From the IMG/VR virus record IMGVR_UViG_2778261537_000016, positions 1-16,241 of that record: 16,241 nucleotides of DNA; one strand, 5' to 3'. Below the pieces are notes generated by a model that worked only from the letters and a program-made list of their open reading frames with translations, did no database searches and was not told where the DNA came from. The DNA comes from a virus. Its lineage: Duplodnaviria; Heunggongvirae; Uroviricota; Caudoviricetes. How positions within the stretch are numbered: the first letter of the stretch is position 1; every line of letters starts with the position of its first letter. Positions 1-13,970 of the stretch are shown here, piece after piece. A program made the translations under genes and the position numbers.

Positions 1-1017
1 CTATGTTGCCATTGTAGCTAAGGGATTAAAGCGCAGGGCCGTTTCAAGGTGGTCAGGTGCTAAGTGCGCGTAGCGCATGGTCATTTTTATGTCGTGATGC
101 CCAAGGATTTTCTGCAGAGCCAAGATGTTTCCGCCTGACATCATAAAGTGTGCTGCGAACGTATGACGCAGAACGTGTGTTAGTTGACCGCGTGGAAGCA
201 CGATAGAAGTCTTATCCATTACAGATAAAAACTGGAAGTAGCAGTCGGTGAAGAACTTGAAACCGTCCAGGGCAATGATTTCTTCATACAGCTCTTTGCT
301 AATCGGAATGCTGCGGTTCTTTTTGCCTTTTGTCCTGACAAACGTGATCCGGTATTTCGTGACCTGAGAACGGGTCAGGTTCACAGCTTCGCGCCAGCGG
401 GCACCGGTACTCAGACAGATTTTGACAACTAGGGCGAGTAGGGGGCTTTGGCGTTTGCAGTCGCACAAAAGCTCAGTGATTTGTTCATGTGTCAGCCAGG
501 CCATCTCTTTTTCTGCGATGGTGAATTTGCGCATGTTCTCCAATGGGTTTGGCGCAGTCCATTCTCCAAGTCGTGCCAGCTCGCTAAACACTCCGCTCAT
601 ATAGCTTTGCTCAAGATTGATAGTTACCGGGCTGGCTCCTTTCTTCCATTTTTCGCTAAAGTAGATTTCACCCGTCAGGCGTTTATCGCGATAGTGCGCG
701 AACATTTTAGATGTTAAATCAGTGGCGAGGGGATTTCCGAGAGCATCGACCATCAGGATCAGCTTGTCGTGAACATGCTCGCCTGCGGTCAGAGATTTTC
801 CGTGCAGCTTGTACCAGAGTTCGACGATATCTTTTAGCGTCCGGCGGTCTACCGATTCGCCCAGCCAGGGTTTCGCCTCAGTCTCATCCATCATGTGCCG
901 TTCAAACGCTAACGCTTCACCTTTACTAGCGAACTGCCTACGCACGCGGCGTCCGCTACGACCTGCGGGATAGCATTCACAAATCCATTTTCCGGTGGTG
1001 AGTTTTCGTACTGACAT
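1..1017 (-). CDS. int: Tyrosine site-specific integrase, P2/186 type
   Basis: ORF 1..1071 (-). C-terminal R...HxxR...Y tyrosine-recombinase signature (LRHTFAAHF ... MTMRYAHL). The N-terminus MSVRKLTTGKW...RRQFASKGEALAFE resembles P2-family integrases. Start chosen at the internal ATG at 1017 because AAGGAGG lies about 9 nt upstream on the minus strand. Stop codon is at 1-3, so the attachment site lies outside the window. Confidence 0.9.
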   Translation of the reverse strand: MSVRKLTTGKWICECYPAGRSGRRVRRQFASKGEALAFERHMMDETEAKPWLGESVDRRTLKDIVELWYKLHGKSLTAGEHVHDKLILMVDALGNPLATDLTSKMFAHYRDKRLTGEIYFSEKWKKGASPVTINLEQSYMSGVFSELARLGEWTAPNPLENMRKFTIAEKEMAWLTHEQITELLCDCKRQSPLLALVVKICLSTGARWREAVNLTRSQVTKYRITFVRTKGKKNRSIPISKELYEEIIALDGFKFFTDCYFQFLSVMDKTSIVLPRGQLTHVLRHTFAAHFMMSGGNILALQKILGHHDIKMTMRYAHLAPDHLETALRFNPLATMAT

Positions 1018-1047
1018 AAAAAATGCCCTCCTTTTGGAGAGCATTTT

Positions 1048-1067
1048 TACTGTATGTATAAACAGTG
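1048..1067. promoter_or_regulatory. LexA-box-like palindrome TACTGTATGTATAAACAGTG in the ASCH-int intergenic region
   Basis: CTGT (1050-1053), an 8-nt AT-rich spacer, then ACAG (1062-1065). It sits in the 79-bp gap just upstream of the int RBS (AAGGAGG, about 1025-1031) and start (1017). Confidence 0.45.
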
Positions 1068-1096
1068 TCAATATATGATGTTAAGAACCTTATACA

Positions 1097-1468
1097 TCAT
1101 AGGTATCGGTATGACTGCGGTGCTGTTATGTTGTCACCTAATGAACTTAGCAAACGTGGTTGTTCATAGACTTTCAAATCACCGATCTTAATCGCAAAGG
1201 CTTTATCCCTGCTTTGAAAGTAAGAATCAAAAAATTGTTTACTGATACCCGCATAACGGCTGGTTTTTTTCCAGACATTGCTGGGTTTATCTTCAATAAC
1301 ATCAGCAATATCGAACTCAGCAACAATCATCCCTACAGGCATTGTTGAATAAATAACCACAGATTTAACATCTGGATTTTTGAAGATTCCTTTTCTGAAC
1401 TCAAACTTTTTTGTTCCATCAAGAATCTTTTCAACAAATTCAGGTTTAATTGACAATAATACTTTCAT
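1097..1468 (-). CDS. ASCH-domain (PUA-like fold) protein
   Basis: 123-aa ORF. N-terminus MKVLLSIKPEFVEKILDGTKKFEFRK matches the characteristic ASCH start (MKxLSIKPEY/W..KI..G.K..E.R). Its start overlaps the end of the upstream gene by about 23 nt, and it ends 79 nt before int. Fold assignment is by eye. Confidence 0.6.
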   Translation of the reverse strand: MKVLLSIKPEFVEKILDGTKKFEFRKGIFKNPDVKSVVIYSTMPVGMIVAEFDIADVIEDKPSNVWKKTSRYAGISKQFFDSYFQSRDKAFAIKIGDLKVYEQPRLLSSLGDNITAPQSYRYL

Positions 1469-2531
1469 CTACAGCACCAAGTTTAATAATGTTGTCAAAT
1501 TCTCTGTCGGTCAATTTTAATACACCCCAATATGCTTGTGGATTTAAACCAACGTCTTCTATTAGTTTAGCACGAGTGATTCTTTTCGGTAAAGCAAGAT
1601 TATATGTAAAACTTATAATATAGGGGTATTTCTTTGTTTTATAAAAACTTCTCAATTCTGTTTCGGTAAATACACTATACCGAGCACAATATTTAATAAA
1701 ATCTTGCTCTGTTGGGAATGAAAAAATATCTCTAACATCTTCTACGACACATAGAGATGTAGCAACAGAACGATAATGAGCTGGACCTTTTTTATCTGAA
1801 GTTCGATAAATTACGAGAATGTCATGCATTTTTATATTTGCTACATCTTGCATGGCGCAGATGTAAATTTTTCTTATACTGTTAGCGTGAGACACGTCAG
1901 TAATAATATCTGGAGATTCAGTTATAAGTTTTGAGTCTGGGAATAGACGAGTATGAAAATCTGGATAAATAGATAGTAAGTATTTGTTTTCTTTATGTCT
2001 GTTGTTGATGAAGGGATAGTCGGCAAGAAGGTCTCCAGTGAGATCATCGGTGCTCATTTCTCTTACTAAAACATTTTCAATACCATTTTCAGATTCTTTT
2101 TTTCCGTATTTTATAAACCCATAATTTAAAAAAAGTTTAATCAGGTAATCATGCTTATCAAAAACTGTTACATATATATCGTTCACTTTTTCACTTAATG
2201 CGTGGTCAAATATCTTTTTCAAAAAACGTTGACCTCGCAATGTACCTTTCGTATTAAACTTAAAGGTCCCTATTTTGAGATGTTTTAAATCAGCCAATGA
2301 AGGGTTAACATCAGTAACCTCGCCATCTTCAATTTTTAGATACATGAATCCATCAATTGAATCATCCTCATTGTAGAGCACGTATGCTTTTTCTCTTAGA
2401 TCTTTTGCTTTTTTGTGAAACCATTCTACAAAACCAGCTTTATAGTCAGCTTTCAATGAGTCAAAAAAAGCATCGTCAAAGTTTACTTCATTAAAACTAA
2501 TGTGCTTTAAATTTTCCATTTTAATCTCCAT
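1446..2531 (-). CDS. GNAT-like (acyltransferase-fold) N-terminal domain fused to an uncharacterised C-terminal domain, possibly PUA/ASCH-like
   Basis: 361-aa ORF. Residues about 50-160 show a GNAT-like pattern (...GTLRGQRFLKKIFDHAL... IYVTVFDKHDYLIKLFLNYGFIKYG) with a degenerate motif A. The C-terminal 200 aa are unassigned; their beta-rich pattern loosely resembles the adjacent ASCH protein. A GGAG RBS precedes the second ATG, so the true start is probably 2519 (MENLK...). Visibly AT-rich. Confidence 0.5.
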   Translation of the reverse strand: MEIKMENLKHISFNEVNFDDAFFDSLKADYKAGFVEWFHKKAKDLREKAYVLYNEDDSIDGFMYLKIEDGEVTDVNPSLADLKHLKIGTFKFNTKGTLRGQRFLKKIFDHALSEKVNDIYVTVFDKHDYLIKLFLNYGFIKYGKKESENGIENVLVREMSTDDLTGDLLADYPFINNRHKENKYLLSIYPDFHTRLFPDSKLITESPDIITDVSHANSIRKIYICAMQDVANIKMHDILVIYRTSDKKGPAHYRSVATSLCVVEDVRDIFSFPTEQDFIKYCARYSVFTETELRSFYKTKKYPYIISFTYNLALPKRITRAKLIEDVGLNPQAYWGVLKLTDREFDNIIKLGAVDESIIVN

Positions 2532-2545
2532 GTCTCATTGAAAAG

Positions 2546-3625
2546 TCATTTTCTAAATTTAATGAAATTTGCGATTATATATAATGCTATTAACGATAGT
2601 GAACCGTAAATAAATAGGTTTTTATCTAAGCTTTCTGTTGGTACAAATTTCATAACAAATGTTATTGCTGCGCCGTAGAAAATGTATGCAAATATTTTGC
2701 TTAGTTTAGATTTCGTGTTTTTAAATTTTACGACGACAGAAAAATCATTAAGTCTCGAATTTATATCATTTGATATTTTCCAATGATATATCATTGGATC
2801 ATGAGACCCGAAAGATACGCCTTTGCTAAAATATTTTGTCCATGTCTCAGACTCTAAAATTCTTGAACCTTTATAATTTGAACCGGATGCGGAACAGTCA
2901 TCAACCATATCGCGGATTATAAAAATATGGCATTTCAAAGGGGTACAAGCGGCGCTAGCAAGAGTTGTGGCTATTTCGGAGGGCAGGTTTCTTTGCTCAT
3001 TAACCCTAAAATCGATGATATCAGACCGCTCAATACTACTCTTAAGGAAGAGATCTTTGGGGTAAAATGTTTTCACTAAAAGACCGATATCTTCTTTATT
3101 AATTTGGACACGGAATCTTAAATAGTGATTACAAGCATCTTCGGAAGAGAGACAATCCTTGAGTTTAAAGGCTAGTAAGGTGCCATTGTGGATTTTTGTT
3201 ATCTTGACTCTATGATCAAGCTCGCCGCCGCTAAATGATAACTTAGTATTAACAACTAAGTCTCCTTTATTGGCGAGCACTAATTTTAAATGTCTACCAT
3301 CTACTGTTTTAGTGTCAATAAGGTATTCATTGAAAACTGCAGTTACGAGATCTCTGCTTGATTCAAGGTTTTCACTAAGATCAGAAAAAAAATTATTTTC
3401 TTTTTCGAATGGTAGGAATATACATATTGCCCCATGCTTAGCAATGGTTTCATCTTCAGGCTTTTTGAATGTGATGCCAAAATCTAAATAGCCAAATTTA
3501 TGAGCGCTTATGTTCCAAAAATTAATATGCAACTCTTCAATGAAATTCTTATGTTCAGAGTTGTAGGTCGAGCCTGAACTACTATGATAATCCCTACACC
3601 CCCAGACCGCAAAACTTCGTGACAT
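2546..3625 (-). CDS. Membrane-anchored hypothetical protein: large N-terminal soluble domain plus C-terminal 2-TM hairpin
   Basis: ORF 2546..3685 (-). Start set at the ATG at 3625 (MSRSFAVWG...), which has AAGGAA about 7 nt upstream and does not overlap the repressor gene. The C-terminus has two hydrophobic helices (IFAYIFYGAAITFVMKF and LFIYGSLSLIALYIIANFI) and ends KFRK. No recognisable catalytic motif. Visibly AT-rich. Confidence 0.55.
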   Translation of the reverse strand: MSRSFAVWGCRDYHSSSGSTYNSEHKNFIEELHINFWNISAHKFGYLDFGITFKKPEDETIAKHGAICIFLPFEKENNFFSDLSENLESSRDLVTAVFNEYLIDTKTVDGRHLKLVLANKGDLVVNTKLSFSGGELDHRVKITKIHNGTLLAFKLKDCLSSEDACNHYLRFRVQINKEDIGLLVKTFYPKDLFLKSSIERSDIIDFRVNEQRNLPSEIATTLASAACTPLKCHIFIIRDMVDDCSASGSNYKGSRILESETWTKYFSKGVSFGSHDPMIYHWKISNDINSRLNDFSVVVKFKNTKSKLSKIFAYIFYGAAITFVMKFVPTESLDKNLFIYGSLSLIALYIIANFIKFRK

Positions 3626-3651
3626 ATCGATTTCCTTTGTCAGTAACGGTT

Positions 3652-4263
3652 TTAATTCAAATTGACCAGTAAGTAAAAATGGCATCGTGCAATTGGGTTT
3701 AGTTCACTGATAAAGCACTCAAATGAATGGCATGGATTGGGTGCTCCAACCTTGACTCTTCCTACAGGTATTCTCGTAAGTTCTCTAATACTCACTTTCC
3801 CTTCTATCTCTACCACCCACTTACCATCGGTCACTTCGTGAAAATGTTGATCAGCTAAATAGAGCTGATCTGAATCCATGATTACGATAGGTTTTCGCAA
3901 AGAATCTGGCACCAACGCTTTGTCGAGTAGGTAAAAATTTGAATCTAATAATTTCCCATCTTTGATTTTTTTTCGAGGTACGGAAAACAAATCAGCAAGA
4001 ACATTTTCATTTGCTGATTGGATACCTAAAGATTTTTGGGGTGGCTTAGGACTCCCAGTTCCAAATGAAAGCCACTCAACTGGGACGCCGGTCTCAATTG
4101 AGCACTTTATTATCCAGTCAGCAGGGAACACGTCTCTCATCCATCTGGTGCTCATCGTGCTTGTTGAAATCCCAAGCCGCTCACAAAGAGCCTTACGAGT
4201 ACTTACTCCGTAGGCCTCAAGCATACGAAGAATAGCCTCACGGCCACCATTGTTAAAATCCAT
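3652..4263 (-). CDS. CI-like immunity repressor (N-terminal HTH)
   Basis: 203 aa. N-terminal HTH-like segment (STRKALCERLGISTSTMSTRWMRD). AAGGAG sits 7 nt upstream of the ATG at 4263. It is divergent from an Apl/Cro-like gene across a promoter/operator region, the same layout as the 186 cI position next to int. No S24 Ser-Lys peptidase motif was seen. Confidence 0.7.
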   Translation of the reverse strand: MDFNNGGREAILRMLEAYGVSTRKALCERLGISTSTMSTRWMRDVFPADWIIKCSIETGVPVEWLSFGTGSPKPPQKSLGIQSANENVLADLFSVPRKKIKDGKLLDSNFYLLDKALVPDSLRKPIVIMDSDQLYLADQHFHEVTDGKWVVEIEGKVSIRELTRIPVGRVKVGAPNPCHSFECFISELNPIARCHFYLLVNLN

Positions 4264-4288
4264 TAATGCTCCTTTGGAACCTTACATG

Positions 4289-4316
4289 TTGACAAACTCC
4301 AAATGAGACGTAATAT
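4289..4316 (+). promoter_or_regulatory. Sigma70-type early (pR-like) promoter, TTGACA-N16-TAATAT
   Basis: TTGACA at 4289-4294 and TAATAT at 4311-4316. It is oriented toward the Apl/Cro-like gene that starts at 4397. Confidence 0.55.
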
Positions 4317-4338
4317 TGCTACTGAAGCTCATTTGGAG
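4297..4338. promoter_or_regulatory. Candidate operator: perfect 11-bp inverted repeat CTCCAAATGAG-N20-CTCATTTGGAG
   Basis: Arms at 4297-4307 and 4328-4338 are exact reverse complements. They bracket the -10 element and the predicted transcription start of the early promoter. Confidence 0.55.
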
Positions 4339-4396
4339 TCTTCACTGTTGAACACCGCTAGACACGGTTTACTTACTTAAAAAGGAATCTTGCATC

Positions 4397-4618
4397 ATGA
4401 CTCCTCACATTTCAATCACGTTGACTGTTCCTTCCGTATCAATTGAAAAATATAGCGAACTTACTGGGCTATCAATTGACACAATCAATGACATGCTAGC
4501 GGATGGCCGCTTGATACGGCACCGCTTACGCAAAGATAAAAAGCGCGAAAAAGTTATGATCAACATTGCGGCTATGACTGTCGATGCGCTCTCAGATTGC
4601 AACGTGTCCATCAATTAG
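4397..4618 (+). CDS. Apl/Cro-like small HTH DNA-binding protein
   Basis: 73-aa ORF, first gene of the rightward operon and divergent from the repressor. HTH-like segment YSELTGLSIDTINDMLADGRL. GGAA lies upstream of the ATG. Confidence 0.6.
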   Translation: MTPHISITLTVPSVSIEKYSELTGLSIDTINDMLADGRLIRHRLRKDKKREKVMINIAAMTVDALSDCNVSIN

Positions 4619-4650
4619 TTCGATTTTGAGACCGACTGAGGGCAATGACT

Positions 4651-5154
4651 ATGTTTGATTATCAAACCTCCAAACATGCGCACTTTGATGCGGCTTGCCG
4701 AGCATTTGCGATTGAGCACAATCTGGAAGATGTGGCCGCTGCTGTTGGCATGAGGCCACAGATCCTGCGCAACAAATTGAATCCAGCACAGCCACACCGT
4801 TTAACCTGTGACGAGCTTTTAGCTATTACGGATTACACCGAAGATGCGCGTTTACTGGATGGAATGCTGGGGCAGATTAACTGCCTTCCATCCGTACCAG
4901 TGAACAATGCCACAGAAGGCAACATGCAGTTGTGCGCACTGAGTGCCACAGCCTGTGTGGGCGCAATTGCTGGGGAAGCCGTATCCACTGGTCATATGAC
5001 CGCCGCCCGCCGTACACAAATTCTGGATCGCGCTCGCGATGCAATCCGTAGCTTATCCGTGCTGGCTTATACCGTTGAAAGCCGTATCCAGTCTGCGCCT
5101 GTTCTGGCCGCAGCGGTGGATTTGGTGACGGCTAACGCCACCGGCTTGATGTGA
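4651..5154 (+). CDS. cII: CII-like lysogeny-establishment regulator (phage 186 CII family)
   Basis: ORF 4645..5154. The sequence MFDYQTSKHAHFDAACRAFA...LRNKLNPAQPH closely resembles my recollection of the 186 CII N-terminus, and the length (167-169 aa) matches. Start is at 4645 or 4651; GAGGG lies just upstream. Confidence 0.7.
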   Translation: MFDYQTSKHAHFDAACRAFAIEHNLEDVAAAVGMRPQILRNKLNPAQPHRLTCDELLAITDYTEDARLLDGMLGQINCLPSVPVNNATEGNMQLCALSATACVGAIAGEAVSTGHMTAARRTQILDRARDAIRSLSVLAYTVESRIQSAPVLAAAVDLVTANATGLM

Positions 5155-5163
5155 GGGAGCACC

Positions 5164-5391
5164 ATGAAAGCGTTTGTTACTTACCTCAAAAAAGAATCAC
5201 CAGCCATGCAACGGCCAAGCGGTTCAACGGGCTGGATAGAACTGCCGAACAGTCAGCGCTGGAATCCTAGCCACACGTATAAATTCAATGCGCATGAGTC
5301 TGTTCGAATGAAAGGCGGGGTGGTTTTACGTTTCTTGCCAACAAAAGTCCGTCGCCTGGTTAGGTGTATAGGGGGGCGCTATGGCAATTAG
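5164..5391 (+). CDS. Hypothetical early protein (75 aa)
   Basis: ORF with a GAGGGA RBS upstream, co-directional and closely spaced within the early operon. No recognisable domain. Confidence 0.4.
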   Translation: MKAFVTYLKKESPAMQRPSGSTGWIELPNSQRWNPSHTYKFNAHESVRMKGGVVLRFLPTKVRRLVRCIGGRYGN

Positions 5392-5809
5392 TCAGGAACA
5401 GCAACAGCGCGGACTGGATCAGATTAAAAAGATTCGCCGCAAATACTTCAATACCAGCAGTGAGGCTGCTGACTGGTGGGACAAATTAACACCGGAATGG
5501 CGCGGGGTAGTTCTCCATGCCGCCGCTGTTAATTCTGGCTTGAGTGTATTCAAAGCCCACTTAAGCAAATGCTGCTGGCGGGAACTGTTTGAGCGTCTGG
5601 ATTACCGGGCAATGATTCAGCTGCGCTGCGGCATTTCCCGTGCGCGTCTGACGATGAATGGATTCGGGTCATTGCGTGACAGTGATTTTTCTAAAAGTAC
5701 CGCGAACCGTCCAATAAAGCGGGCTTATCCAATCAATAACAATCGGGGTCCGCAGATGATTATCGCGCCTCATATCGTCCATAAGTTACAACAACAGGGG
5801 AATCTCTGA
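5381..5809 (+). CDS. Hypothetical early protein (142 aa)
   Basis: ORF with a G-rich RBS (AGGGGGG) upstream. It overlaps the upstream ORF by 11 nt and its stop overlaps the next start. No recognisable domain. Confidence 0.45.
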   Translation: MAISQEQQQRGLDQIKKIRRKYFNTSSEAADWWDKLTPEWRGVVLHAAAVNSGLSVFKAHLSKCCWRELFERLDYRAMIQLRCGISRARLTMNGFGSLRDSDFSKSTANRPIKRAYPINNNRGPQMIIAPHIVHKLQQQGNL

Positions 5810-6210
5810 TGGCCATTATTTCCGTTGAAGGTAAATCGTTAGGGGCTGAGCTGGCCGTGTGGGGCGTTCCACATAATTATGCCGTGGCGTTTGCAGAGAA
5901 AAGCACCAGCAAAAACGGTCGCATTGCGCTGCATCCGTTCTTCTTTAATGACACTGAGCACATGACTAATCCGCGTCACTGGCTGGCAATCAATGCCGCT
6001 TTCTGGTGCTGCGTGTACCGCGAGGCCGAAAGCAAAGAAGCACAGGTTGAAGCGCTGGCTGGGATCCGCGCAATTTTCTACACGGCCGGTGCGTTGGGTG
6101 TTGGCGAAATTAAAGCACTGATCCAGGAGTGGTGGCGGACAACGTACGAGCTGCACCTTATTCCTGCACCGAACCATTCCGCCGTCACTGTACAACCCGC
6201 TTTTCACTAA
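5809..6210 (+). CDS. Hypothetical early protein (133 aa)
   Basis: ORF with an AGGGGA RBS. Its start overlaps the stop of the upstream ORF. No recognisable domain. Confidence 0.45.
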   Translation: MAIISVEGKSLGAELAVWGVPHNYAVAFAEKSTSKNGRIALHPFFFNDTEHMTNPRHWLAINAAFWCCVYREAESKEAQVEALAGIRAIFYTAGALGVGEIKALIQEWWRTTYELHLIPAPNHSAVTVQPAFH

Positions 6211-6278
6211 TTAACAACATGATTTTTTTTGGCCACAGCTTAGGTGGCCGGGGATTCTTTTGCCTTAAGGAAACCAAA

Positions 6279-6512
6279 ATGCACATGACACGTCAGGATT
6301 TACCCGCAACAAAATCAGGCACTGACCTGCTGGCTATGCTCACCCAAGCCACTCAGGAAGGTAAAGCCGCTGCTGCTGATCTGTGTTCCACCCGTCTGGA
6401 TAAGCTGGCCACCCATGCAGCCAATGAAGGTTTAAGCGCAACGGAAATCATTGAGTTAATCCGCGAAGAAGCCGCAGCGATTTGCAGTAAAGGCGGTGCA
6501 GCATGGCAGTAA
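6279..6512 (+). CDS. Hypothetical small protein (about 77 aa)
   Basis: Internal ATG of ORF 6129..6512 with AAGGA 7 nt upstream (MHMTRQDLPATKSG...). The 5' extension to 6129 overlaps the preceding gene and is probably not translated. Its end overlaps the dam start by 10 nt. Confidence 0.45.
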   Translation: MHMTRQDLPATKSGTDLLAMLTQATQEGKAAAADLCSTRLDKLATHAANEGLSATEIIELIREEAAAICSKGGAAWQ

Positions 6513-7372
6513 AAACTCCGCTTAAGTGGGTGGGCAGCAAAGCCCGCCTTATGCCGCAGTTGCTTCCCCATCTGCCAGAGGGTAAGCGCCTGATAGAACC
6601 TTTTGCCGGTTCCTGTGCTGTCATGATGAATACGGATTATGACGAGTATCTGATAGCTGATGTGAATCCTGACCTTGTTAATCTGTATAAGACGATGGCT
6701 TATCACACTGATGCATTGCTCATTGAGCTGGAGGCTTTATTTTCTGCCGGTTCATTAGGTGATGAAGAAAACAGGGCAATTTTCTATTACGCGGTGCGTG
6801 ATGCCTTCAACCAGTCCGGCAAATCCTTTGGTTCTGAATCTGTGGAAGCTGCGGCGCGTTTTCTTTATCTGAATCGTCACTGCTTCAATGGCCTGTGCCG
6901 ATACAATCGCCGTGGTCAGTTCAATGTTCCGTTTGGTAAGTACAAAAAAACCTACTTTCCTGCTGATGAAATCCGCGCTTTTGCAGAAAAAGCGAAACGT
7001 GCAACGTTCATTACTGCCAACTATTCAGAAACGCTTGATTTGGTAAGGGACGGGCATGACGTTGTTTATTGTGATCCGCCTTACCTGACTGATACCGACA
7101 ATTTCACCGCTTACCATGAGCGCGGTTTTTCGCACATGGATCAGGGACGGCTGGCGCGTAAGCTGCGTCGCCTGGCTGAGCGCGGGATTAAGGTTGTCGC
7201 GTCAAACAGCGATCTGGAAATGGTGCATTACCTGTATTCAGGATTCGAAGCGGTTCGGGTCAATGCGCCACGCAGTGTGGGTGCAGCAGCTGCAAGCCAG
7301 AAAGTGGCCGCAGAGCTCATTCTGAAGTCACCTGCTAACCCGGCGATCGACGTTCGGGCGGTGGGGGCATGA
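6503..7372 (+). CDS. dam: DNA adenine N6-methyltransferase, Dam/D12 class
   Basis: 289 aa. Collinear with E. coli Dam motifs: LKWVGSKARL (cf. LKWAGGKYPL), EPFAGS (AdoMet binding), FLYLNRHCFNGLCRYNRRGQFNVPFGKYKK, and catalytic DPPY (VVYCDPPYL). No restriction endonuclease gene is adjacent. Confidence 0.9.
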   Translation: MAVKTPLKWVGSKARLMPQLLPHLPEGKRLIEPFAGSCAVMMNTDYDEYLIADVNPDLVNLYKTMAYHTDALLIELEALFSAGSLGDEENRAIFYYAVRDAFNQSGKSFGSESVEAAARFLYLNRHCFNGLCRYNRRGQFNVPFGKYKKTYFPADEIRAFAEKAKRATFITANYSETLDLVRDGHDVVYCDPPYLTDTDNFTAYHERGFSHMDQGRLARKLRRLAERGIKVVASNSDLEMVHYLYSGFEAVRVNAPRSVGAAAASQKVAAELILKSPANPAIDVRAVGA

Positions 7373-7581
7373 TGACGGAAATTATCACCGGCATTTATGC
7401 CTTGTTTGCCTGTATTACTTTCGCCTTTCTCTTATGGGACGAATGCCAGGACGAATTTGATCACGATGCTGAGGACTTAGGGTTAATCACTCTGAGTGCG
7501 GTTTTTTGGCTACCACTGGTAGCGGCTGTACTTGTGGCTTTCCTGATTGATTTCTGGCGTAAGTGGGTTAACCGTGGTTGA
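7369..7581 (+). CDS. Small predicted membrane protein (70 aa, two TM helices)
   Basis: The start overlaps the dam stop (ATGATGA). Two hydrophobic helices (IITGIYALFACITFAFLLW and LSAVFWLPLVAAVLVAFLIDFW). A GGGGG RBS lies upstream. Confidence 0.5.
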   Translation: MMTEIITGIYALFACITFAFLLWDECQDEFDHDAEDLGLITLSAVFWLPLVAAVLVAFLIDFWRKWVNRG

Positions 7582-7582
7582 T

Positions 7583-9598
7583 ATGCTGGAGCCTGGCCAA
7601 CACCAGACCGTCAATGCCTGGCGGCGTGAAACCTTTGCGCTTGGTACCCCGTCAGATGCAACGATCACAGAACGCCGTTTGTGGGCTGTAAACCCACAGG
7701 ATTATGAATGGCGTTCCCAGTACCTGCATGAAATACCCGACTGGTTAGCCGGGTATTTTGGCAACCGTTACGAAAAGCTGCTGGCTGGTCGTGACGGGCG
7801 TCGCCGTGCCAATACGTTCCTGCGCAAAACTATCGGCGGGAATGTATTGCCACGTCTGCGCAAAGTGGCTGCACGTTACAAACTGGCCGCTGATGCACTT
7901 GATCTTCCTTTCGGTAAGTCGCTGGAGCGACTGCCGTCACTTGACCGCCCGGAACTCAAAAAACTGGCTGGCCAGATATCTGGCTGGATCTCCCAGTCAC
8001 TGTATGACTTTACCGATCAGTTTGTGGGCAGCACTGACGATGCCGCAGAGCTGCGCCGCCGTACGCTGGAGTCTTACCGCCATTTATGCACGTGTTCCCT
8101 GATGCTGAACAATCAACCGCCGTACTGGGCTGAACATGAAGCTAATGGCGGGCAACTGGAAACGCGTAAGGCTGAATCCGGGATCCTCCGCATGATGGCA
8201 CCTGAATGGTGGTATCTGCGTCTTAAGCGGGCGCGGGATATGCAGCGTGAGCATATGGCCATTGCAGTGGGGCAAGTACAGAAAGCGGCCAGCGCTTATG
8301 TGTCCCGTAAAACCTTGGGCGAATGGATAGACCAGAAAAAGCGGAACCTTGAGTTCTTCAAAAAGTTTGACCTGCTGAATGATGAAGGGCTGCGTATTGC
8401 ACTGGACAGCATGGTGCATCGCAGCGTTGCTAATCCGGCGATCCGTCGCTGTGAGCTAATGGTAAGAATGAGAGGATTTGAAGATATGGCCAATGGAGAA
8501 GGACTGGCCGGTGAGTTTTACACCATCACCGCGCCATCGCGATTCCATGCGGTACACAGCAAAGGGGGCTTTGTTTCACAGTGGGATGGCTGCACTCCGC
8601 AGGATACCCAGCGCTACTTATGTGGTGTATGGGCGAAAGCCCGCGCCGCTATTTCCCGTGCAGGTATCCATGTTTTTGGTTTTCGTGTAGTAGAGCCTCA
8701 CCACGATGGCACACCGCACTGGCACATGCTGCTTTTTATGCGTCCTGGTGACGTGGATACCGTGCGCGATATTCTTTGTTATCACGCCAGAATTACTGAC
8801 TCCGAAGAACTGCAAACGCCAAACGCGCTAAAGGCACGTTTCCATGTTGAAGCCATCGATCCCGCTAAAGGCTCGGCTACGGGTTACATAGCCAAATATA
8901 TATCCAAAAACATTGATGGTTTTGCGCTGGATGGTGAACAGGACGACGAAACAGGGGAGAACCTACGGGACATGGCCAAGTCCGTTTCTGCATGGGCTTC
9001 ACGCTGGCGCATTCGCCAGTTTCAGCAGATTGGTGGTGCGCCGGTGACTGTCTGGCGCGAGTTGCGCCGGTTACGTGATCAGGTACTGACTGACCGAAGA
9101 ATGGATTCGGTTCTGGCTGCTGCGGATGTTGGTGACTGGGCGGCGTACACCCAGGCGCAGGGTGGCGCACTGGTTTCCCGCCGTGACCTGGTTGTTCGTC
9201 TGGCTTATGAAATCACGGAACAGGGTAATGAATACGCAGAGGACGTGCAGCGCGTTCAGGGTGTCTATTCTCCATTGGTTCCAGATTCAGCGGTATGTAC
9301 GCGCTTGGTGAAGTGGCAGAAGGTTGCGAAGTTGGCCGAAGCGCCAGCGGAGGCGGGTTTTTCTGGCGGCAGCGCCGCCCCTTGGAGTTCTGTCAATAAC
9401 TGTACGGAGGGTGGAACCCGCAGACGGTTAAAACTGGAATTGCGAAGCCGGGGTTTTGAAGGTTCTGACGATGAAATAGCCATTCTCATGCGGGGCAGTG
9501 GTTTGAGATTTGGCCAGGCGGCGTTGATTTACCGTAATGGCAGGTTACAGGAGACACGAAACGAGCCAATGCACGAGCTGTGGCCGGGGTGGTTGTAG
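7583..9598 (+). CDS. Rolling-circle replication initiator endonuclease (P2 gpA / 186 A family)
   Basis: The ORF tool starts at a TTG at 7547; the first ATG is 7583, directly after the upstream stop. HUH metal-binding motif HHDGTPHWHMLLF and twin active-site tyrosines in GSATGYIAKYISKNIDG, as in P2 A. Length about 670 aa. Confidence 0.85.
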   Translation: MLEPGQHQTVNAWRRETFALGTPSDATITERRLWAVNPQDYEWRSQYLHEIPDWLAGYFGNRYEKLLAGRDGRRRANTFLRKTIGGNVLPRLRKVAARYKLAADALDLPFGKSLERLPSLDRPELKKLAGQISGWISQSLYDFTDQFVGSTDDAAELRRRTLESYRHLCTCSLMLNNQPPYWAEHEANGGQLETRKAESGILRMMAPEWWYLRLKRARDMQREHMAIAVGQVQKAASAYVSRKTLGEWIDQKKRNLEFFKKFDLLNDEGLRIALDSMVHRSVANPAIRRCELMVRMRGFEDMANGEGLAGEFYTITAPSRFHAVHSKGGFVSQWDGCTPQDTQRYLCGVWAKARAAISRAGIHVFGFRVVEPHHDGTPHWHMLLFMRPGDVDTVRDILCYHARITDSEELQTPNALKARFHVEAIDPAKGSATGYIAKYISKNIDGFALDGEQDDETGENLRDMAKSVSAWASRWRIRQFQQIGGAPVTVWRELRRLRDQVLTDRRMDSVLAAADVGDWAAYTQAQGGALVSRRDLVVRLAYEITEQGNEYAEDVQRVQGVYSPLVPDSAVCTRLVKWQKVAKLAEAPAEAGFSGGSAAPWSSVNNCTEGGTRRRLKLELRSRGFEGSDDEIAILMRGSGLRFGQAALIYRNGRLQETRNEPMHELWPGWL

Positions 9599-9676
9599 CC
9601 TCGTAAGTCTGTGATACATCACTGTTTGTCAACGAATAGCAGCAAAAATCACTTTCACATTTTGTGCTTAAATGTA

Positions 9677-9696
9677 TACTGTATGAATATACAGTT
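9677..9696. promoter_or_regulatory. LexA (SOS) box, TACTGTATGAATATACAGTT
   Basis: CTGT-N8-ACAG with an AT-rich spacer, a near-perfect match to the LexA consensus TACTGTATATATATACAGTA. It lies about 20-40 nt upstream of the small ORF at 9714 and its AGGAGG RBS (9708-9713). Confidence 0.75.
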
Positions 9697-9713
9697 ATTC
9701 TGTTTTTAGGAGG

Positions 9714-9932
9714 ATGCTTGTGCAGGATTTGTTTATGGAAACTATCGCATTGCAGCGGATTGCGTTGTTTACCAGGTTGATCGCCAAAAGTAATTGCACT
9801 GGCTGTGAAAAGGACATTGCACTTGCCTGGCTAAGCGAGCTGACTTCAGATCTGGAAAGTAAACTTGATGAATATGAAAGTAAAAACCCCCGGGAAGGGG
9901 GCTTATCAGGCGGCGGGAGTCGCTTTCAGTAG
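9714..9932 (+). CDS. SOS-controlled small protein at the tum position (candidate Tum-like antirepressor)
   Basis: 72-aa ORF just downstream of the LexA box and a strong AGGAGG. That RBS abuts the ATG at 9714, so the GTG at 9720 may be the real start. In 186 the LexA-repressed tum gene sits downstream of A in the same place. No sequence homology to Tum was verified, and the ORF runs through the convergent terminator and overlaps the ogr-like 3' end. Confidence 0.4.
   Translation: MLVQDLFMETIALQRIALFTRLIAKSNCTGCEKDIALAWLSELTSDLESKLDEYESKNPREGGLSGGGSRFQ
9882..9902 (-). terminator. Rho-independent terminator for the ogr-like gene
   Basis: On the minus strand a GC hairpin (GCCCCC-TTCCC-GGGGG) is followed by TTTTT, immediately after the ogr-like stop at 9906-9908. 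Confidence 0.6.
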
Positions 9933-10175
9933 GTCTAATGCCATTTGACGCTGATCGGGTGACAGTGCATTCAGTATTTTCTGCACCATAGCATCACCCG
10001 TTTTCGCGCTGGGGCTGAGAGTGTGGGAGAACGTCAGATTCATCACAAACGTATGGCCACACTCAACATCTGAACAGGCGCAGTAAATATCCGCAATCTG
10101 CCGGTGCTTCCGGTTTGTGTTACGAATAACAGCCTTTGAGCCGCATTCCGGGCATTCGATTTTCAGAACTCGCAT
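9906..10175 (-). CDS. Ogr/Delta-family zinc-finger late-gene transcription activator
   Basis: ORF 9906..10229 (-). The internal ATG at 10175 gives MRVLKIECPECGSKAV...YCACSDVECGHTF, matching the Ogr pattern CxxC-x22-24-C-x4-C followed by TF (compare P2 Ogr CPLCQ...CQNVNCSATF). GGAG lies upstream. Confidence 0.75.
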   Translation of the reverse strand: MRVLKIECPECGSKAVIRNTNRKHRQIADIYCACSDVECGHTFVMNLTFSHTLSPSAKTGDAMVQKILNALSPDQRQMALDLLKATPAA

Positions 10176-10225
10176 ATTCCATGCTCCAGCTGTTAAATGA
10201 TGCCTGGATTTTAGCCTTTTTCGCC

Positions 10226-11287
10226 TCATGCCGCACCCTTATCCGTTGATTCTGTGTAACTTAAATCAAAGTTAAGGTGCAGCCTTTCCGGTATTTCGGG
10301 ATCGTTGTTCACCGCAGTCATAAACCGGCGCTGAATGGGTGCTATTTCGCTTTTCTTGTAAATCCTTTCCGCCTTTTCAACATCCCCCAGGCCGGCAGTG
10401 TTCTGCGGGACAATTCCGGCCAGCCCTGCGGGAAAGCGGTGTGCGTTGAGAATGTCCTGTGCGCTGATGTTTTTGATGTTGGCAAATTCATCTTTTGCAG
10501 AGATATCCCCCATTTCAATAAACTTGATCGCATCCCCATCCCCGCCTGGAATGTTCACCAGAATGGTGGAGAAGTTGCCGATACCTTTGCTGTCCCGCAG
10601 CTGCTGTTCAATCTCTTCTTCCATTTCATCCGTCATGCTGGGATCGCGCGTGTAGAGAATGCCGCCAGTATGGGCGCCGTTGTGGTAGTAACGGCGGCGA
10701 AAAATCACGGCTTCACTGTTAAGCAATGCCGAGTGTACGCCGCCGATATAGTCGGGCAGCCCGTAAATATGCTGCTGCGGGTCGTACATCTTGATAAAAA
10801 TGATATCTTCTTGCGGCCATACCTGCGGTTCACCGTCCTGCAATACCACATAATCGCCGGGCTGGTCTGCGGCGTTGTCCCTGACTTTACGGCGGCGAAT
10901 ATACAGGCCGGGTAAAGGTTCCAGGGCAATCACATCTCCCCATCCGTTGCGGATTTTGCCAATCGCAATATCCCCGAAGGTTGTATAGTCAAACGCTGCG
11001 GCTTCCAACTGGTCGTAAGTCAGGCCACCGCCCAGATAATCAGACACAATCATATTTTTCCGGGCGTGGATAATGCCGCCATGCTGACCGTTCAGATTGA
11101 TAAGCTGTGCCAGTGCCAGCCGGTCAATCGGCTGGGTAAAGTGATCGGCGGCATTGTCGTACCAGATGTCGCGGTAATCCGTGCCGGTGGTCAGGACGGG
11201 TTCCGGTTTGCCGAATGTGATGATGCTCATTTTTTTGGATTTATCGCCGCGCGGGTTGCGCTTAACGAAGCGGTTTTTTTTACTCAT
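10226..11287 (-). CDS. Portal protein (P2 gpQ family)
   Basis: 353 aa. Collinear with P2 Q as I recall it: MSKK..., ITFGKPEPVL (cf. FTFGEPVPVL), LNSEAVIFRRRYYHNGAHTG (cf. LNESATLFRRKYYENGAHAG), LRDSKGIGNF, KDEFANIKNISAQDILNAHRFP, GLGDVEKA. Its start overlaps the terminase stop by 4 nt. Confidence 0.9.
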   Translation of the reverse strand: MSKKNRFVKRNPRGDKSKKMSIITFGKPEPVLTTGTDYRDIWYDNAADHFTQPIDRLALAQLINLNGQHGGIIHARKNMIVSDYLGGGLTYDQLEAAAFDYTTFGDIAIGKIRNGWGDVIALEPLPGLYIRRRKVRDNAADQPGDYVVLQDGEPQVWPQEDIIFIKMYDPQQHIYGLPDYIGGVHSALLNSEAVIFRRRYYHNGAHTGGILYTRDPSMTDEMEEEIEQQLRDSKGIGNFSTILVNIPGGDGDAIKFIEMGDISAKDEFANIKNISAQDILNAHRFPAGLAGIVPQNTAGLGDVEKAERIYKKSEIAPIQRRFMTAVNNDPEIPERLHLNFDLSYTESTDKGAA

Positions 11288-12441
11288 GCAGCCTCTTTCC
11301 TTACACCCCAGCGGGATTTCGGTTTATTTTCGTAGTTGAGTGGTTCGTTATGCAGGGCGTGGGTAATTGCCCAGAACGCCTCTGCGTGGCCAGTGTCCTG
11401 GCTGCGGTCAGCGACAAATGTCATGGCGTTACCACTTTGCGTGGTGGTGCGGCGTACAGCCATAAAGCTGGCCGGGATCTCTTTCAGGTTCTTGTCCCAT
11501 TCAATACGCTGACTTTCCACCACGTCCGCCGCTTTCAGTACCAGCTGATTTTTCGTGTTCATGTCGTAACGAATGGCGACGGCCACGCGCATGGCAAAAT
11601 GCTGGATGTTGTCAAAAACACCCTGGCCAATACCGGTAACGTCCACTCCCAGATAGGTGAAGTTGTATTTTTTAAACAGGAGTTCGATCTGCCTGGCCTG
11701 ATAGCGGAAGTTCATGCCCTTCCAGTTAATGACCTTCAGAACGCGGAATTTCTCTGCGGCATACATCGGCGGGGCAATAATCACAAAACACGACAAATCG
11801 CCGCTACGTGCCGGGTCAAAGCCTCCCCATACTGGCCTGTCACCGAATGGCCGCGCAGCGTCCGGGTTGTGATCCTGCCAGGTGTCCACCTCCACGCCGC
11901 AGGCTTCCAGGTCTGAAAAGCTGAATACGGAATCCTTGCTGTCCACGAAGACGCACATATAGAGCATGTTGAAGGTGGCCGTGTTGTAGCGGTTGCGCAG
12001 CTTCTCGATGTTGGCCAGGTTGAAGCCACCTGCAATGGCATCCTCCATCGTGATGACATAGCGCCACTGCCCATCCGGGCAAAGCCGTCCGCCGTCGCGC
12101 ATGTCATCAAAAGACGGGAACTGGGCGGCCGCGCGTTTTTTGCTGCCCTGTTTCCATTCCTCACCCGTCCAGAACGGGTAAGCCTGGTGCGTTTTGGCCG
12201 ATGGTGTTGAAAAGTAGGTGGTGCGCCATTTGTCATGGGTGGCCATTGCGCTGGCCACTTCGTTAAGCCTGGCGAAGTTAGGCACCCAGAAATATTCGTC
12301 ACAGTACAGGTGGCCACTGTAGGACTGGGCTGTGTTCTTGTTGGTTGAGAGAAAACGCAGTTCAGCGCCGTTGCTGAGGCGGATCGGGTTGCCGGTCAGC
12401 GTTATGCCAAAATACTGTTCTGCAATGTTGACGATGTAAGA
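11284..12441 (-). pseudogene. Terminase large subunit (P2 gpP family), 5'-truncated; N-terminal region including the expected Walker A is absent
   Basis: ORF 11284..12285 plus an in-frame open extension upstream. The translation (...NGAELRFLSTNKNTAQSYSGHLYCDEYFWVPNFARLNEVASAMATHDKWRTTYFSTPS...) matches the central and C-terminal part of P2 P, including a Walker-B-like YCDEYFW. The frame hits a stop at about 12472-12474 with no ATG and no Walker A, and AT-rich non-coding DNA follows. Confidence 0.75.
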
Positions 12442-12517
12442 TAGGATGTACCGTTTTTTAAAAACAACTAGTTATACACTTTGTGGGAGCCTATTGGGAA
12501 CCTGAAGTTTTGCTCTT

Positions 12518-12537
12518 TCTATTCATATCTATTCATA
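12518..12537. repeat. Perfect tandem direct repeat TCTATTCATA x2
   Basis: Read directly at 12518-12527 and 12528-12537, in the AT-rich spacer between the truncated terminase and the next module. Confidence 0.6.
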
Positions 12538-12562
12538 AAGCACCATTTGCTGCCTTATCTGA

Positions 12563-12589
12563 TTGACCAAAAACAACCGCGGTTATAGA
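12563..12589 (+). promoter_or_regulatory. Candidate sigma70 promoter (TTGACC ... TATAGA) for the 12645 operon
   Basis: TTGACC at about 12563-12568 and a TATAGA-like -10 about 15-17 bp downstream. GAGG RBS lies 5 nt before the ATG at 12645. Weak call by eye. Confidence 0.3.
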
Positions 12590-12644
12590 CTTTGCTCCAA
12601 ATAGCTAAGGCTATTGCTTAGTAAGTAAAACAGTTGAGGTTGCC

Positions 12645-13184
12645 ATGAATCCGTTTAACGCCATTACTTTTGCTGCATTGTGCGGGCCTCTGGCTTGTCC
12701 TGCTGCTATGGCGCAGGAGTTCATCATCCAGCCAGCCCCTGTGATTGCTAAACCTTTTGAGTACTCTCCTTCTGTTGAGGAATTCTCACGCAGAATGGAA
12801 GAGGGTAAGGAGATCTTGCAAAAGTTAACAATTGCAGCAGATGACTACTATATCTGTTTGATTGATCTTAATAGCCAAGATGCTCGCGAGTTTGTTTCCA
12901 AAAACGGGACAGATACGACAGAGGCATGCGAAATGTTCCTGCGTGCTTTTGAAGAAGAAGTGAAGCGTACAATTGAATCGCCTCTGCCTGAATTTATCAG
13001 GTCAGAACTGAAGGTTTACTGGCGTCATATTGCTAAAGCTCGCTCATCTGTCACTCGCCTTAACAATTACATAAAGAGCATATTTAAAGAAACTGTTACG
13101 TTTAGCGGGCGCGCGGATCTTGCTGGAATTGCAGCACTAGCTAGTCACACATCAAATAAGCTAAAATCGATGCAATTTCACTAA
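12645..13184 (+). CDS. Hypothetical protein with signal-peptide-like N-terminus (179 aa); upstream partner of the YafO-like gene
   Basis: N-terminus MNPFNAITFAALCGPLACPAAMA/QE is hydrophobic with an AxA-type cleavage site but lacks a positively charged n-region. The rest is charged and helical with no recognisable domain. GAGG RBS. Stop is 16 nt before the next gene. Confidence 0.5.
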   Translation: MNPFNAITFAALCGPLACPAAMAQEFIIQPAPVIAKPFEYSPSVEEFSRRMEEGKEILQKLTIAADDYYICLIDLNSQDAREFVSKNGTDTTEACEMFLRAFEEEVKRTIESPLPEFIRSELKVYWRHIAKARSSVTRLNNYIKSIFKETVTFSGRADLAGIAALASHTSNKLKSMQFH

Positions 13185-13200
13185 CCGATAGCGGACGACC

Positions 13201-13635
13201 ATGCATCTAGAAGTCTCTATTAATCCAGAAACTAGAGCTGAATTTTTTGATGAAGTTTTTCTCAAATTCCCGGAGCTAGAGTCTTCTATCATTGATGATT
13301 TCAAGAGATACAAAGCAACCGGTGAGCTTCCGCATTATTTCGGTAGGGACGTTGCGTATACTCAGCCCTATGGTGCTTTTCGGGCTGGGTTGATGCATAT
13401 CCATCTTTGTCTACCGCCAAACAAGTTTCCCGAGAAACTTCCACAACCGGATAGGGTCTGCAAGAAAGGTGATCCTGATAATGATGCTTGTCTTGTGTAT
13501 GTCCAAGGTGAGCTTTATGAGAATAAATATTCACTCATTGCTATTATGTATCCCGATGCACATGAAAAAGCAAGAAAACATGATGTGATGAGCTATCTGG
13601 CGCGAATTGCCCAGAATTATAAAGATGAAAACTAA
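13201..13635 (+). CDS. YafO-family type II toxin-like protein (ribosome-dependent mRNA interferase family)
   Basis: 144 aa. Collinear with E. coli YafO as I recall it: YK..G.LP..FGRD..Y, HIHL, D.A(C/H)LVY.QG, LIAI..P..H..AR. The gene is followed immediately by a strong terminator. Confidence 0.6.
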   Translation: MHLEVSINPETRAEFFDEVFLKFPELESSIIDDFKRYKATGELPHYFGRDVAYTQPYGAFRAGLMHIHLCLPPNKFPEKLPQPDRVCKKGDPDNDACLVYVQGELYENKYSLIAIMYPDAHEKARKHDVMSYLARIAQNYKDEN

Positions 13636-13655
13636 CCCGCCGAAGCGGGTTTTTT
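13636..13655 (+). terminator. Rho-independent terminator (CCCGC-CGAA-GCGGG followed by TTTTTT)
   Basis: Perfect 5-bp GC stem with a tetraloop and a T6 run, directly after the stop at 13635. It lies between convergent genes and may also act on the minus strand. Confidence 0.8.
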
Positions 13656-13661
13656 GTGAGA

Positions 13662-13934
13662 TTAGTTATTTATTTTCCTATTTGTTCTTACCCTCTCCCA
13701 TTCAATTCTGCCTTCTTCACGCCGTTTATCTATATATTCAGCAAGATCCTGAATGTTGATGCAGCGCTTTGCTTTCTGTGATGTACCAACACGATAAGTC
13801 GGGATCGGCAATTGGCATGCATTTGCTTTCGCTTCTGCTGTGTTAGGGCTCATACCGAAATACTTTTGGCATACAGCTGACAGCTCAATGTTTGGGGTAT
13901 TGAATTCAGCCATCAGTAAAAACAAGGTGTTCAT
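13662..13934 (-). CDS. PrtN-family (pyocin activator-like) transcriptional regulator
   Basis: ORF 13662..13961 (GTG per the ORF tool); the ATG at 13934 has GGAG upstream. The sequence FGMSPNTAEAKANACQLPIPTYRVGTSQKAKRCINIQDLAEYID matches the conserved PrtN core as I recall it. Confidence 0.65.
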   Translation of the reverse strand: MNTLFLLMAEFNTPNIELSAVCQKYFGMSPNTAEAKANACQLPIPTYRVGTSQKAKRCINIQDLAEYIDKRREEGRIEWERVRTNRKINN

Positions 13935-13970
13935 AATTTTCTCCATCAAAACCGGCTGCACCCGGGAAAA

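Follow-up and report, generated by a model that had tools for sequence, protein, structure and literature searches.

What do two overlapping minus-strand genes, lodged between the integrase (int) and repressor (cI) genes of a prophage, do for the element that carries them? The window analysed here is the whole 16,241-nt stretch at positions 1 to 16,241 of the IMG/VR virus record IMGVR_UViG_2778261537_000016, and Pfam and NCBIfam matches identified it as the left part of a P2/186-type prophage. An original prediction, made from the sequence alone, had interpreted the two genes as a GNAT-like acyltransferase followed by an ASCH/PUA-like protein and had proposed an acylation-based toxin with a reversing or sensing partner. 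We found that the pair, a GNAT-EVE fusion protein with an ASCH protein, belongs to a kind of module already known by computation, and that the locus is a typical representative found where such modules usually lie. The best explanation, to which we assign a probability of about 0.45, is a toxin-antitoxin-like (TA-like) module for abortive infection or exclusion that would work by RNA-directed acylation. The original prediction had not mentioned that the pair is catalogued as a candidate defence system (PDC-M11), that it lies in a prophage immunity operon or that a third, membrane-anchored gene accompanies it.

A GNAT-EVE fusion protein and an ASCH protein are encoded by overlapping genes

The two open reading frames (ORFs) were located exactly where they had been placed before, at 1446..2531 (361 aa) and 1097..1468 (123 aa) on the minus strand, with an overlap of 23 nt. 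The 361-aa protein matched the PADLOC model PDC-M11A over residues 2-361 (E 6.9e-137) and phrog_6345 (E 5e-155), and its 1843 homologue clusters carried the NCBI name N-acetyltransferase wherever a source name was given. Translation likely starts at M5 (position 2519), where a GGAG lies 6 nt upstream of the ATG; this would give a protein of 357 aa, and most homologues comprise 356-357 aa. A search of Pfam with the 361-aa protein returned no match at E<=1, the GNAT models and EVE (PF01878) included, and the proposed GNAT assignment was therefore examined by structure. The AlphaFold2 model, built on 39 homologues, reached a predicted local distance difference test score (pLDDT) of 87.5 and a single-chain predicted template modelling score of 0.85.

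The N-terminal domain (2052..2519, minus strand; residues about 5-160) adopted the alpha/beta fold of GNAT (acyl-CoA N-acyltransferase) enzymes in this model, as the original prediction had supposed, and its best structural neighbours were N-alpha-acetyltransferases, which acetylate alpha-amino groups. The assignment agreed with a match of the N-terminus to phrog_13728, annotated as acetyltransferase (E 3.7e-25), and with similarity to PaiA, both in NCBIfam (E 2.8e-4, far below the curated cut-off) and between the family profile and the PDB entry 1tiq (E 2e-4). In addition, the homologues P0123, P0142 and P0193 exceeded the gathering score of Pfam Acetyltransf_1. When aligned with PaiA, G100 corresponded to the first glycine of GNAT motif A, and the last position of the motif, usually Gly or Ala, was an invariant Arg102, so that the motif appears to be non-canonical. 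The motif-B-like Y137-G138-F139 was conserved in the GNAT-EVE family, Y137 being near-invariant.

The C-terminal domain (1449..2036, minus strand; residues 166-361) showed the beta-barrel of the PUA-like (ASCH/EVE/YTH-type) fold, which bears out the ASCH-like pattern previously guessed by eye. After ASCH proteins, its best-characterised structural neighbours were the DNA readers THYN1 (which reads 5-methylcytosine DNA), the EVE-HNH enzyme VcaM4I and McrB-N. The domain is labelled EVE here on the basis of its fold and of the CLANS cluster of Bell et al. (PMC7641849). According to the model, the GNAT fold is packed rigidly against this reader fold in a single chain. At the sequence level, the C-terminal domain and the ASCH partner were recognisably similar in the first strand-helix only (KYLLSIYPDFHTRLF versus KVLLSIKPEFVEKIL; hhalign E 0.0018 over no more than 29 columns). 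Direct sequence kinship of the two was dropped because this match is too short and weak, and their likeness is attributed to the fold rather than to a recent duplication. The loop at residues 203-216 (ITESPDIITDVSHA) was predicted to be disordered (pLDDT <50 in both models) though it is highly conserved; it holds or abuts the invariant residues D212, S214, N217, S218 and K221 and may become ordered only once a substrate or partner is bound.

The 123-aa protein proved to be ASCH-like, as proposed. It matched Pfam ASCH (PF04266) above the cut-off (E 1.1e-6, 29.7 bits versus 21.2) over profile positions 1-99 of 103, as well as PDC-M11B over residues 1-123 (E 1.4e-48) and phrog_3136 (E 1.9e-51), and 2124 homologue clusters were found. 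Near its N-terminus it carries G18-T-K20-K-F-E23-F-R25, which fits GxKxxExR, reportedly the signature of ASCH domains. Among 28 diverse homologues, G18, K20, E23, R25, Y40 and P117-Q118-S119 were invariant. Neither Pfam nor NCBIfam detected a ribbon-helix-helix (RHH) or helix-turn-helix (HTH) domain in the protein. The subfamily also matched the C-terminal half of the L22 ribosomal-protein fusion model NF008917 (E 2e-13), and its profile aligned with the Zymomonas mobilis ASCH protein (ZmASCH, PDB 5guq/5gus) over residues 4-122 (E 6e-15). ZmASCH binds nucleic acids and cleaves only single-stranded RNA (ssRNA) in vitro (Kim et al. 2017, PMC5615036; PDB 5guq), an activity that the authors called weak and observed with a 100-fold excess of protein. 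The two proteins share the GxKxxExR motif, and of the three functional cleft residues of ZmASCH (Tyr47, Lys53, Ser128), Tyr47 and the Ser128 of the C-terminal PQS motif correspond to the invariant Y40 and S119. In contrast, ZmASCH Lys53 corresponds to the invariant G46 of the window family; the next residue is M47 in the window protein and Lys in most relatives.

The pair is conserved as a unit across phyla

The conservation of the pair was studied in 82 loci, of which 80 came from a scan of one genome per species and two were E. coli prophage loci. The scanned loci belonged to Proteobacteria, Bacteroidota, Firmicutes, Verrucomicrobiota, Acidobacteriota, Myxococcota, Campylobacterota and other phyla. 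Their GNAT-EVE proteins were 47-75% identical to the query, and 47-55% identical across phyla. The ASCH gene adjoined the GNAT-EVE gene in 81/82 loci, and the remaining locus stopped at a contig edge; the pairing is thus obligate and not due to chance. At the 23-nt dual-coding junction of the window (1446..1468, minus strand), the last seven codons and the stop of the GNAT-EVE gene (DESIIVN*) run over the start of the ASCH gene (MKVLLSIK). Overlap lengths were anchored on the conserved MKVLLS start in the 78 co-directional loci and amounted to 23 nt in 68 and to 29 nt in eight of them (76/78 together), across phyla. This overlap suggests that translation of ASCH is coupled to that of GNAT-EVE, and the ASCH protein is probably a stoichiometric partner of the enzyme.

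The architecture of the enzyme was tallied for the 150 best representative GNAT-EVE clusters. Plain GNAT-EVE proteins accounted for 91 of them, and N-terminal extensions of ~150 aa (22 clusters), of 200-250 aa or more (~15) and of ~100 aa (five) were also present. Among distant relatives, one protein is fused to a TIR domain (P0123; Pfam TIR_2, E 1.7e-13). Fusions with ASCH occurred in both orders, namely ASCH-GNAT-EVE (P0240), ASCH-x-GNAT-EVE (P0191, P0193, P0233) and a PIN-like-GNAT-EVE-ASCH protein with a weak PIN_4 match and a C-terminal ASCH domain (P0188). That ASCH can be fused to the enzyme at its N- or C-terminal side strongly indicates a physical cooperation of the two proteins.

The flanks of the pair were diverse (474 clusters among 575 neighbouring genes), and ~60/78 loci had no tightly linked co-directional upstream gene, which argues that the two genes form an autonomous core. 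Immediate neighbours included GajB, ThsA/SIR2, DRT, Mad2, type I/III/IV restriction genes, integrases and S24 repressors; many others were metabolic genes. The pair was present on 34 plasmid records and in several types of temperate phages, where it occupied positions that commonly hold accessory genes, the int-cI slot included. In lambdoid coliphages it directly follows cI, and in SopEPhi (P2-like) its neighbours are replication gene A on one side and the portal gene on the other. In the Lactobacillus prophage Lj965 (L088:2825-4920), it precedes the terminase gene and lies directly downstream of four tRNA genes (Ser, Glu, Tyr, Phe). This single case would be suggestive if the system acts on tRNA.

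Some loci departed from the common layout. In several loci from Vibrio, Photobacterium and Methylophilus (L022, L014, L029, L050, L084), the ASCH gene, the AAA_17 P-loop gene and the two-transmembrane gene formed a separate operon, which was convergent or divergent to the GNAT-EVE gene, without overlap. The module can therefore be rearranged with the linkage kept. In an Arcobacteraceae locus (L063:6001-7053), the GNAT-EVE gene was split into two fragments and the ASCH gene was intact, which may reflect decay of a toxin gene.

A third gene joins the pair in the presumed repressor operon

The pair lies in a low-GC island of 2.6 kb between int (1..1071, minus strand) and cI (3652..4263, minus strand), with 32-35% GC compared with ~50% in the flanks. 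The int gene, at the left end of the prophage, encodes a P2/186-type tyrosine integrase according to NCBIfam tyrosine recombinase matches, and the repressor is of the 186 CI type (Pfam Phage_CI_repr E 4e-25, Phage_CI_C E 1.5e-29). The island holds three minus-strand genes, and the complete same-strand run reads cI, P379, GNAT-EVE, ASCH and int, with cI first. Gaps of 26 nt separate cI from P379 and P379 from the GNAT-EVE gene, followed by the 23-nt overlap with the ASCH gene. In a promoter and terminator scan of positions 900-4700, the minus strand was free of terminator-like sites from cI to int. Promoter-like sites were not enriched in this region over shuffled sequences (14 versus 13.1), which gives no ground for claiming an internal promoter. 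The spacing and the lack of terminator-like sites suggest that the cassette is co-transcribed with cI. Lambda carries rexAB directly after cI. The lysogen exclusion genes of this kind resemble the cassette by position only (behind the repressor gene, co-directional with it and at short distances), and the RexAB proteins are unrelated to those of the cassette.

The third gene, P379 (2546..3625, minus strand), encodes a soluble domain of ~310 aa followed by two C-terminal transmembrane (TM) helices (~2555-2695). Its longest ORF extends to 3685 (379 aa), but an AAGGA precedes the ATG at 3625, and the true start is probably this M21, which would give 359 aa. No match was found in Pfam, PADLOC, NCBIfam or PDB sequences, and PHROGs gave only matches with E>0.02. 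The family comprises 31 clusters, mostly of 355-363 aa, which keep two hydrophobic C-terminal segments, reduced to a single broad segment in the most divergent members. Homologues of P379 adjoined the GNAT-EVE/ASCH pair in seven loci (L001, L003, L004, L006, L022, L050, L074). When contexts were retrieved independently from distant P379 members (28-45% identical), the pair was adjacent in 3/3 (L083, L084, L085). P379 is thus a lineage-specific accessory that belongs with the pair, and it is absent from published descriptions and from PADLOC. In one of the distant contexts (L083:1-4936), a GNAT-EVE variant of 499 aa, the length of PIN fusions, is accompanied by P379-like and ASCH genes. Upstream of this group are DUF4007, which has been described as part of BREX-related systems centred on HerA/FtsK (PMC12839542), and two large genes that carry no annotation.

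Other accessory genes were also observed. An AAA_17/adenylate-kinase-like P-loop protein of ~176 aa was encoded in 13/82 loci. In E. coli relatives, the third-gene slot held either a P379-type gene or an unrelated 260-aa gene, the latter in E. coli and Enterobacter relatives (L002:6522-7301, minus strand; L005:5216-5998, plus strand). The 260-aa protein is soluble and contains R-N-K-V-I-H (Rx4H, HEPN-like) and a C-terminal CxxC...CxxC; its reading as a HEPN RNase obtained no Pfam or PDB support and was kept as a hint only.

Previous descriptions of the system

The overlapping genes matched PDC-M11A and PDC-M11B, the two models by which PADLOC recognises PDC-M11. The PDC systems are 145 untested candidates derived from 'guilt by embedding' (10.1101/2024.01.29.577857), and others have left them out as unvalidated; the sole mention of PDC-M11 that we found in the literature was in a genome inventory. 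In the lambdoid Escherichia phage PhiR47_2 (PV340567.1, L086:3243-5429), a 58%-identical pair directly after cI is annotated as 'GevT toxin' and 'GevA antitoxin', of which the 361-aa and 123-aa proteins are the respective homologues; we found no paper using these names. The closest description is that of Bell et al. (2020 BMC Biol, PMC7641849), who reported (PIN)-GNAT-EVE operons almost all of which contain ASCH, often with an AAA_17 ATPase, and a PIN-less form common in prophages of beta- and gamma-proteobacteria. The window shows the same GNAT fusion with a C-terminal EVE/PUA-like domain, an adjacent ASCH gene and a gamma-proteobacterial prophage setting, and the AAA_17 accessory is present in relatives of the pair. 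These authors predicted a TA function and suggested aminoacyl-tRNA as a possible target. The proposal of an acylation toxin with a partner agrees with their prediction and with the GevT/GevA annotation; the part of it that cast ASCH as a YqfB-type eraser misfits the residues of the protein, as detailed below.

The module is very widespread, with ~1,800-2,100 protein clusters per partner in many phyla, temperate phages and plasmids, and it has been flagged by comparative genomics since 2013; no published mechanism was found. The present finding by itself thus re-identifies a catalogued candidate where such systems are expected. What it adds to the existing descriptions is a dedicated family of two-TM accessory proteins, a fusion with TIR, a 23-nt dual-coding junction that is conserved, the kinship of the ASCH partner with ZmASCH and the placement between cI and int. 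The window offers a compact natural three-gene cassette within a repressor operon.

Proposed mode of action and alternative explanations

From these data we infer a toxic acyltransferase acting on RNA, an ASCH protein with an antitoxin role and an auxiliary TM protein. The locus would be a mobile conflict module that sits, as an insert of low GC content, within the lysogenic cI-int run of a degraded 186-like prophage. Through its PUA-like domain, the enzyme would dock on a host nucleic acid that is conserved, most likely an RNA of the translation machinery ((aminoacyl-)tRNA or rRNA), and the GNAT domain would acylate an amine there, leading to growth arrest of the infected cell. Until infection, the ASCH protein would bind the enzyme or the same RNA and restrain (or guide) the enzyme. 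The two-TM protein would be an accessory added in this lineage, possibly a membrane effector or anchor. We are fairly confident that GNAT-EVE/ASCH is a conflict module, a role supported by the PDC-M11 candidacy, the TIR and weak PIN_4 fusions and the defence-gene neighbours, as well as by its mobility among prophages and plasmids. Neutralisation of a toxic enzyme by ASCH is a reading towards which we lean slightly. An RNA target is put forward more tentatively, at rather less than even odds. It is favoured because the ASCH partner is homologous to the ssRNA-cleaving ZmASCH and because of the PIN fusions; the match to the L22-ASCH fusion model and the N-alpha-acetyltransferases among the best structural neighbours of the GNAT domain likewise favour RNA or the translation apparatus. 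The identity of 47-55% across phyla is unusually high and speaks for a cellular target that is itself conserved, perhaps universal, and against a phage protein that evolves fast. If acylation of tRNA, aminoacyl-tRNA or a nucleobase under two modified-base readers proved true, it would represent a chemically new effector logic in prophage immunity, and a large ASCH subfamily would gain a function.

Several observations weigh against this TA-like scheme. The known GNAT/RHH type II TA systems (AtaT-AtaR, TacT-TacA, ItaT, KacT), whose toxins acetylate aminoacyl-tRNA, likewise place a GNAT-fold toxin and a small partner together in one operon carried by a mobile element. However, their RHH/HTH antitoxin is encoded upstream, whereas the partner in the window is a downstream ASCH protein, so that the enzyme comes first, the partner second and the RHH/HTH antitoxin is lacking. 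The GNAT domain of the window is furthermore fused to a PUA-like domain of ~195 aa, and the 361-aa protein had no sequence match to the AtaT, TacT, ItaT or KacT toxins in the Pfam, NCBIfam and PDB searches. Covalent fusion of toxin and antitoxin is unusual for a classical type II TA system, and the fusions fit equally well with ASCH as a cooperating substrate-recognition subunit. The Pfam search without a GNAT match and the non-canonical Arg102 of motif A also count against the scheme. Known defence models were matched by a modest minority of the 150 genes directly beside the pair, and a simple 'defence island' argument is therefore not relied on here. Where the ligand of an EVE domain is known, it is mostly modified DNA (THYN1, VcaM4I). 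Finally, our literature search found no experimental study of GNAT-EVE/ASCH members, and Bell et al. stated that none of these modules had been experimentally characterised (PMC7641849).

The exchangeable third genes raise the question of whether the pair is itself the effector. It might instead be a sensor core that recognises phage-induced or phage-borne modified nucleic acid, with acetylation as a signal or switch and the killing left to a third module, namely the two-TM protein here and fused TIR or PIN domains or AAA_17 elsewhere. The P379 family beside the pair in every context examined, the AAA_17/adenylate-kinase-like gene in 13 loci, the TIR and PIN-like N-terminal fusions and the different third gene in the same slot of E. 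coli relatives all speak for such a core. We nevertheless regard it as unlikely, since the many loci without a linked upstream gene imply that the pair mostly acts alone and has to provide the output itself, and the plain GNAT-EVE architecture prevails among the best representative clusters. In a further scheme, which we rate as rather improbable, a nucleobase or other amine in DNA or in RNA other than aminoacyl-tRNA would be acetylated by GNAT-EVE; the two PUA-like modules would recognise the mark and link it to a membrane effector. This would amount to nucleic-acid-acetylation immunity, which has no characterised precedent, and the P379 family with its two TM helices would then be an effector specific to the GNAT-EVE/ASCH system and not described before. 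A DNA target is also implied by the proposal of DNA base acetylation by Iyer et al. (2013 NAR), as cited in PMC7641849. The GNAT domain would then acetylate a base in DNA, with the EVE and ASCH domains as readers of a (modified) DNA base, the mark either shielding the prophage or host from restriction or crippling incoming phage DNA. The DNA-reading structural neighbours of the C-terminal domain and the restriction-modification (R-M) genes near the scanned loci are compatible with this, as are the PIN-GNAT-EVE genes beside type I R-M systems and the fusions of ASCH to HsdS or XRE-HTH (PMC7641849). The same study, however, found that the GNAT-EVE form, unlike the PIN form, is not associated with R-M systems. 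Moreover, the sole characterised homologue of the ASCH partner cleaves ssRNA and not DNA, and the L22-ASCH and PIN fusions indicate RNA. The PUA-like reader-nucleases of type IV restriction (VcaM4I, McrB-N, SRA/ASCH-restriction endonucleases) also join a reader to a catalytic module in a defence context, but the catalytic module of the pair is an acyltransferase, and the loci show no regular association with a nuclease or another restriction effector. To our knowledge, no DNA-acetylating GNAT domain of the GNAT-EVE type has been found, and we consider DNA modification quite unlikely.

The remaining explanations concern the ASCH partner and the premise of a conflict role. The original prediction had drawn on YqfB, an N4-acetylcytidine (ac4C) amidohydrolase of the same ASCH superfamily, and a writer/eraser pair can be envisaged in which GNAT-EVE writes an N-acyl mark such as ac4C and ASCH removes it. 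YqfB depends on the triad Lys21/Thr24/Glu74 and on Arg26, and its T24A variant is inactive (PMC6972931). K20 and R25 of the 123-aa protein correspond to K21 and R26, but the position of the nucleophile Thr24 is taken by the invariant Glu23, in an unambiguous register. The overall likeness is short and weak (hhalign E 0.015 over 27 columns), and YqfB was not among the PDB sequence matches of the window ASCH family profile at E<=10, in contrast to ZmASCH. YqfB comprises 103 aa, whereas the 123-aa protein has extra C-terminal elements in common with ZmASCH. The eraser role is disfavoured because of this replacement of the nucleophile and because the two proteins are sometimes fused, which in one chain would set up a futile cycle of writing and erasing; we judge it very improbable. 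The two genes might, at the other extreme, be ordinary passengers, a housekeeping acetyltransferase for small molecules or proteins next to an unrelated gene. The plain NCBI name, the weak similarity to the spermidine acetyltransferase PaiA and the many metabolic neighbours would fit that description. It is barely credible in view of the obligate pairing and conserved dual-coding overlap, the fusion of the enzyme to nucleic-acid reader folds and to TIR/PIN, the patchy spread across phyla at ~50% identity, the accessory slots of four temperate-phage types and plasmids, and the low-GC island in which the genes are inserted. The TA-like module with RNA-directed acylation therefore remains our preferred explanation.

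The remainder of the window

Beyond cI, the prophage continues with CII/CP76 (4645-5154), a Dam methylase gene (6503-7372) and the gene for replication protein A (7547-9598), followed by the portal gene (10226-11287, minus strand) and a P2-type large terminase gene (11284-12285, minus strand). The terminase gene has lost its N-terminus (the Terminase_6N match starts at profile position 108), on which basis the prophage is regarded as a degraded remnant; rightwards of it, there are no capsid or tail genes. The 186-like remnant thus spans ~12 kb and has retained the immunity region with the cassette. No tRNA genes were detected in the window, and a DNA-level search of phage genomes gave no match to it. 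The closest genomic locus was that of Raoultella terrigena NBRC 14941, in which the 361-aa protein is 99% identical. Among E. coli genomes, only relatives at ~77% DNA identity were found, so the window does not come from E. coli; these relatives likewise showed the order int ('phage integrase'), ASCH, acetyltransferase, X and cI.

A gene pair at ~43% GC lies to the right of the remnant (12645-13635, plus strand). It comprises a gene for a 179-aa protein, whose N-terminus resembles a signal peptide and which matched no Pfam family, and a gene for a type II toxin of the YafO family (PF13957, E 1.9e-21), for which no YafN-like antitoxin was recognised. The block at 13971-16241 (minus strand) consists of prophage genes of the early-region type, including an Rv2179c-like 3'-5' exoribonuclease (E 7.6e-76) and, by eye, an HD-domain-like protein (15705-16241). 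This block suggests that a second prophage fragment abuts the 186-like remnant.

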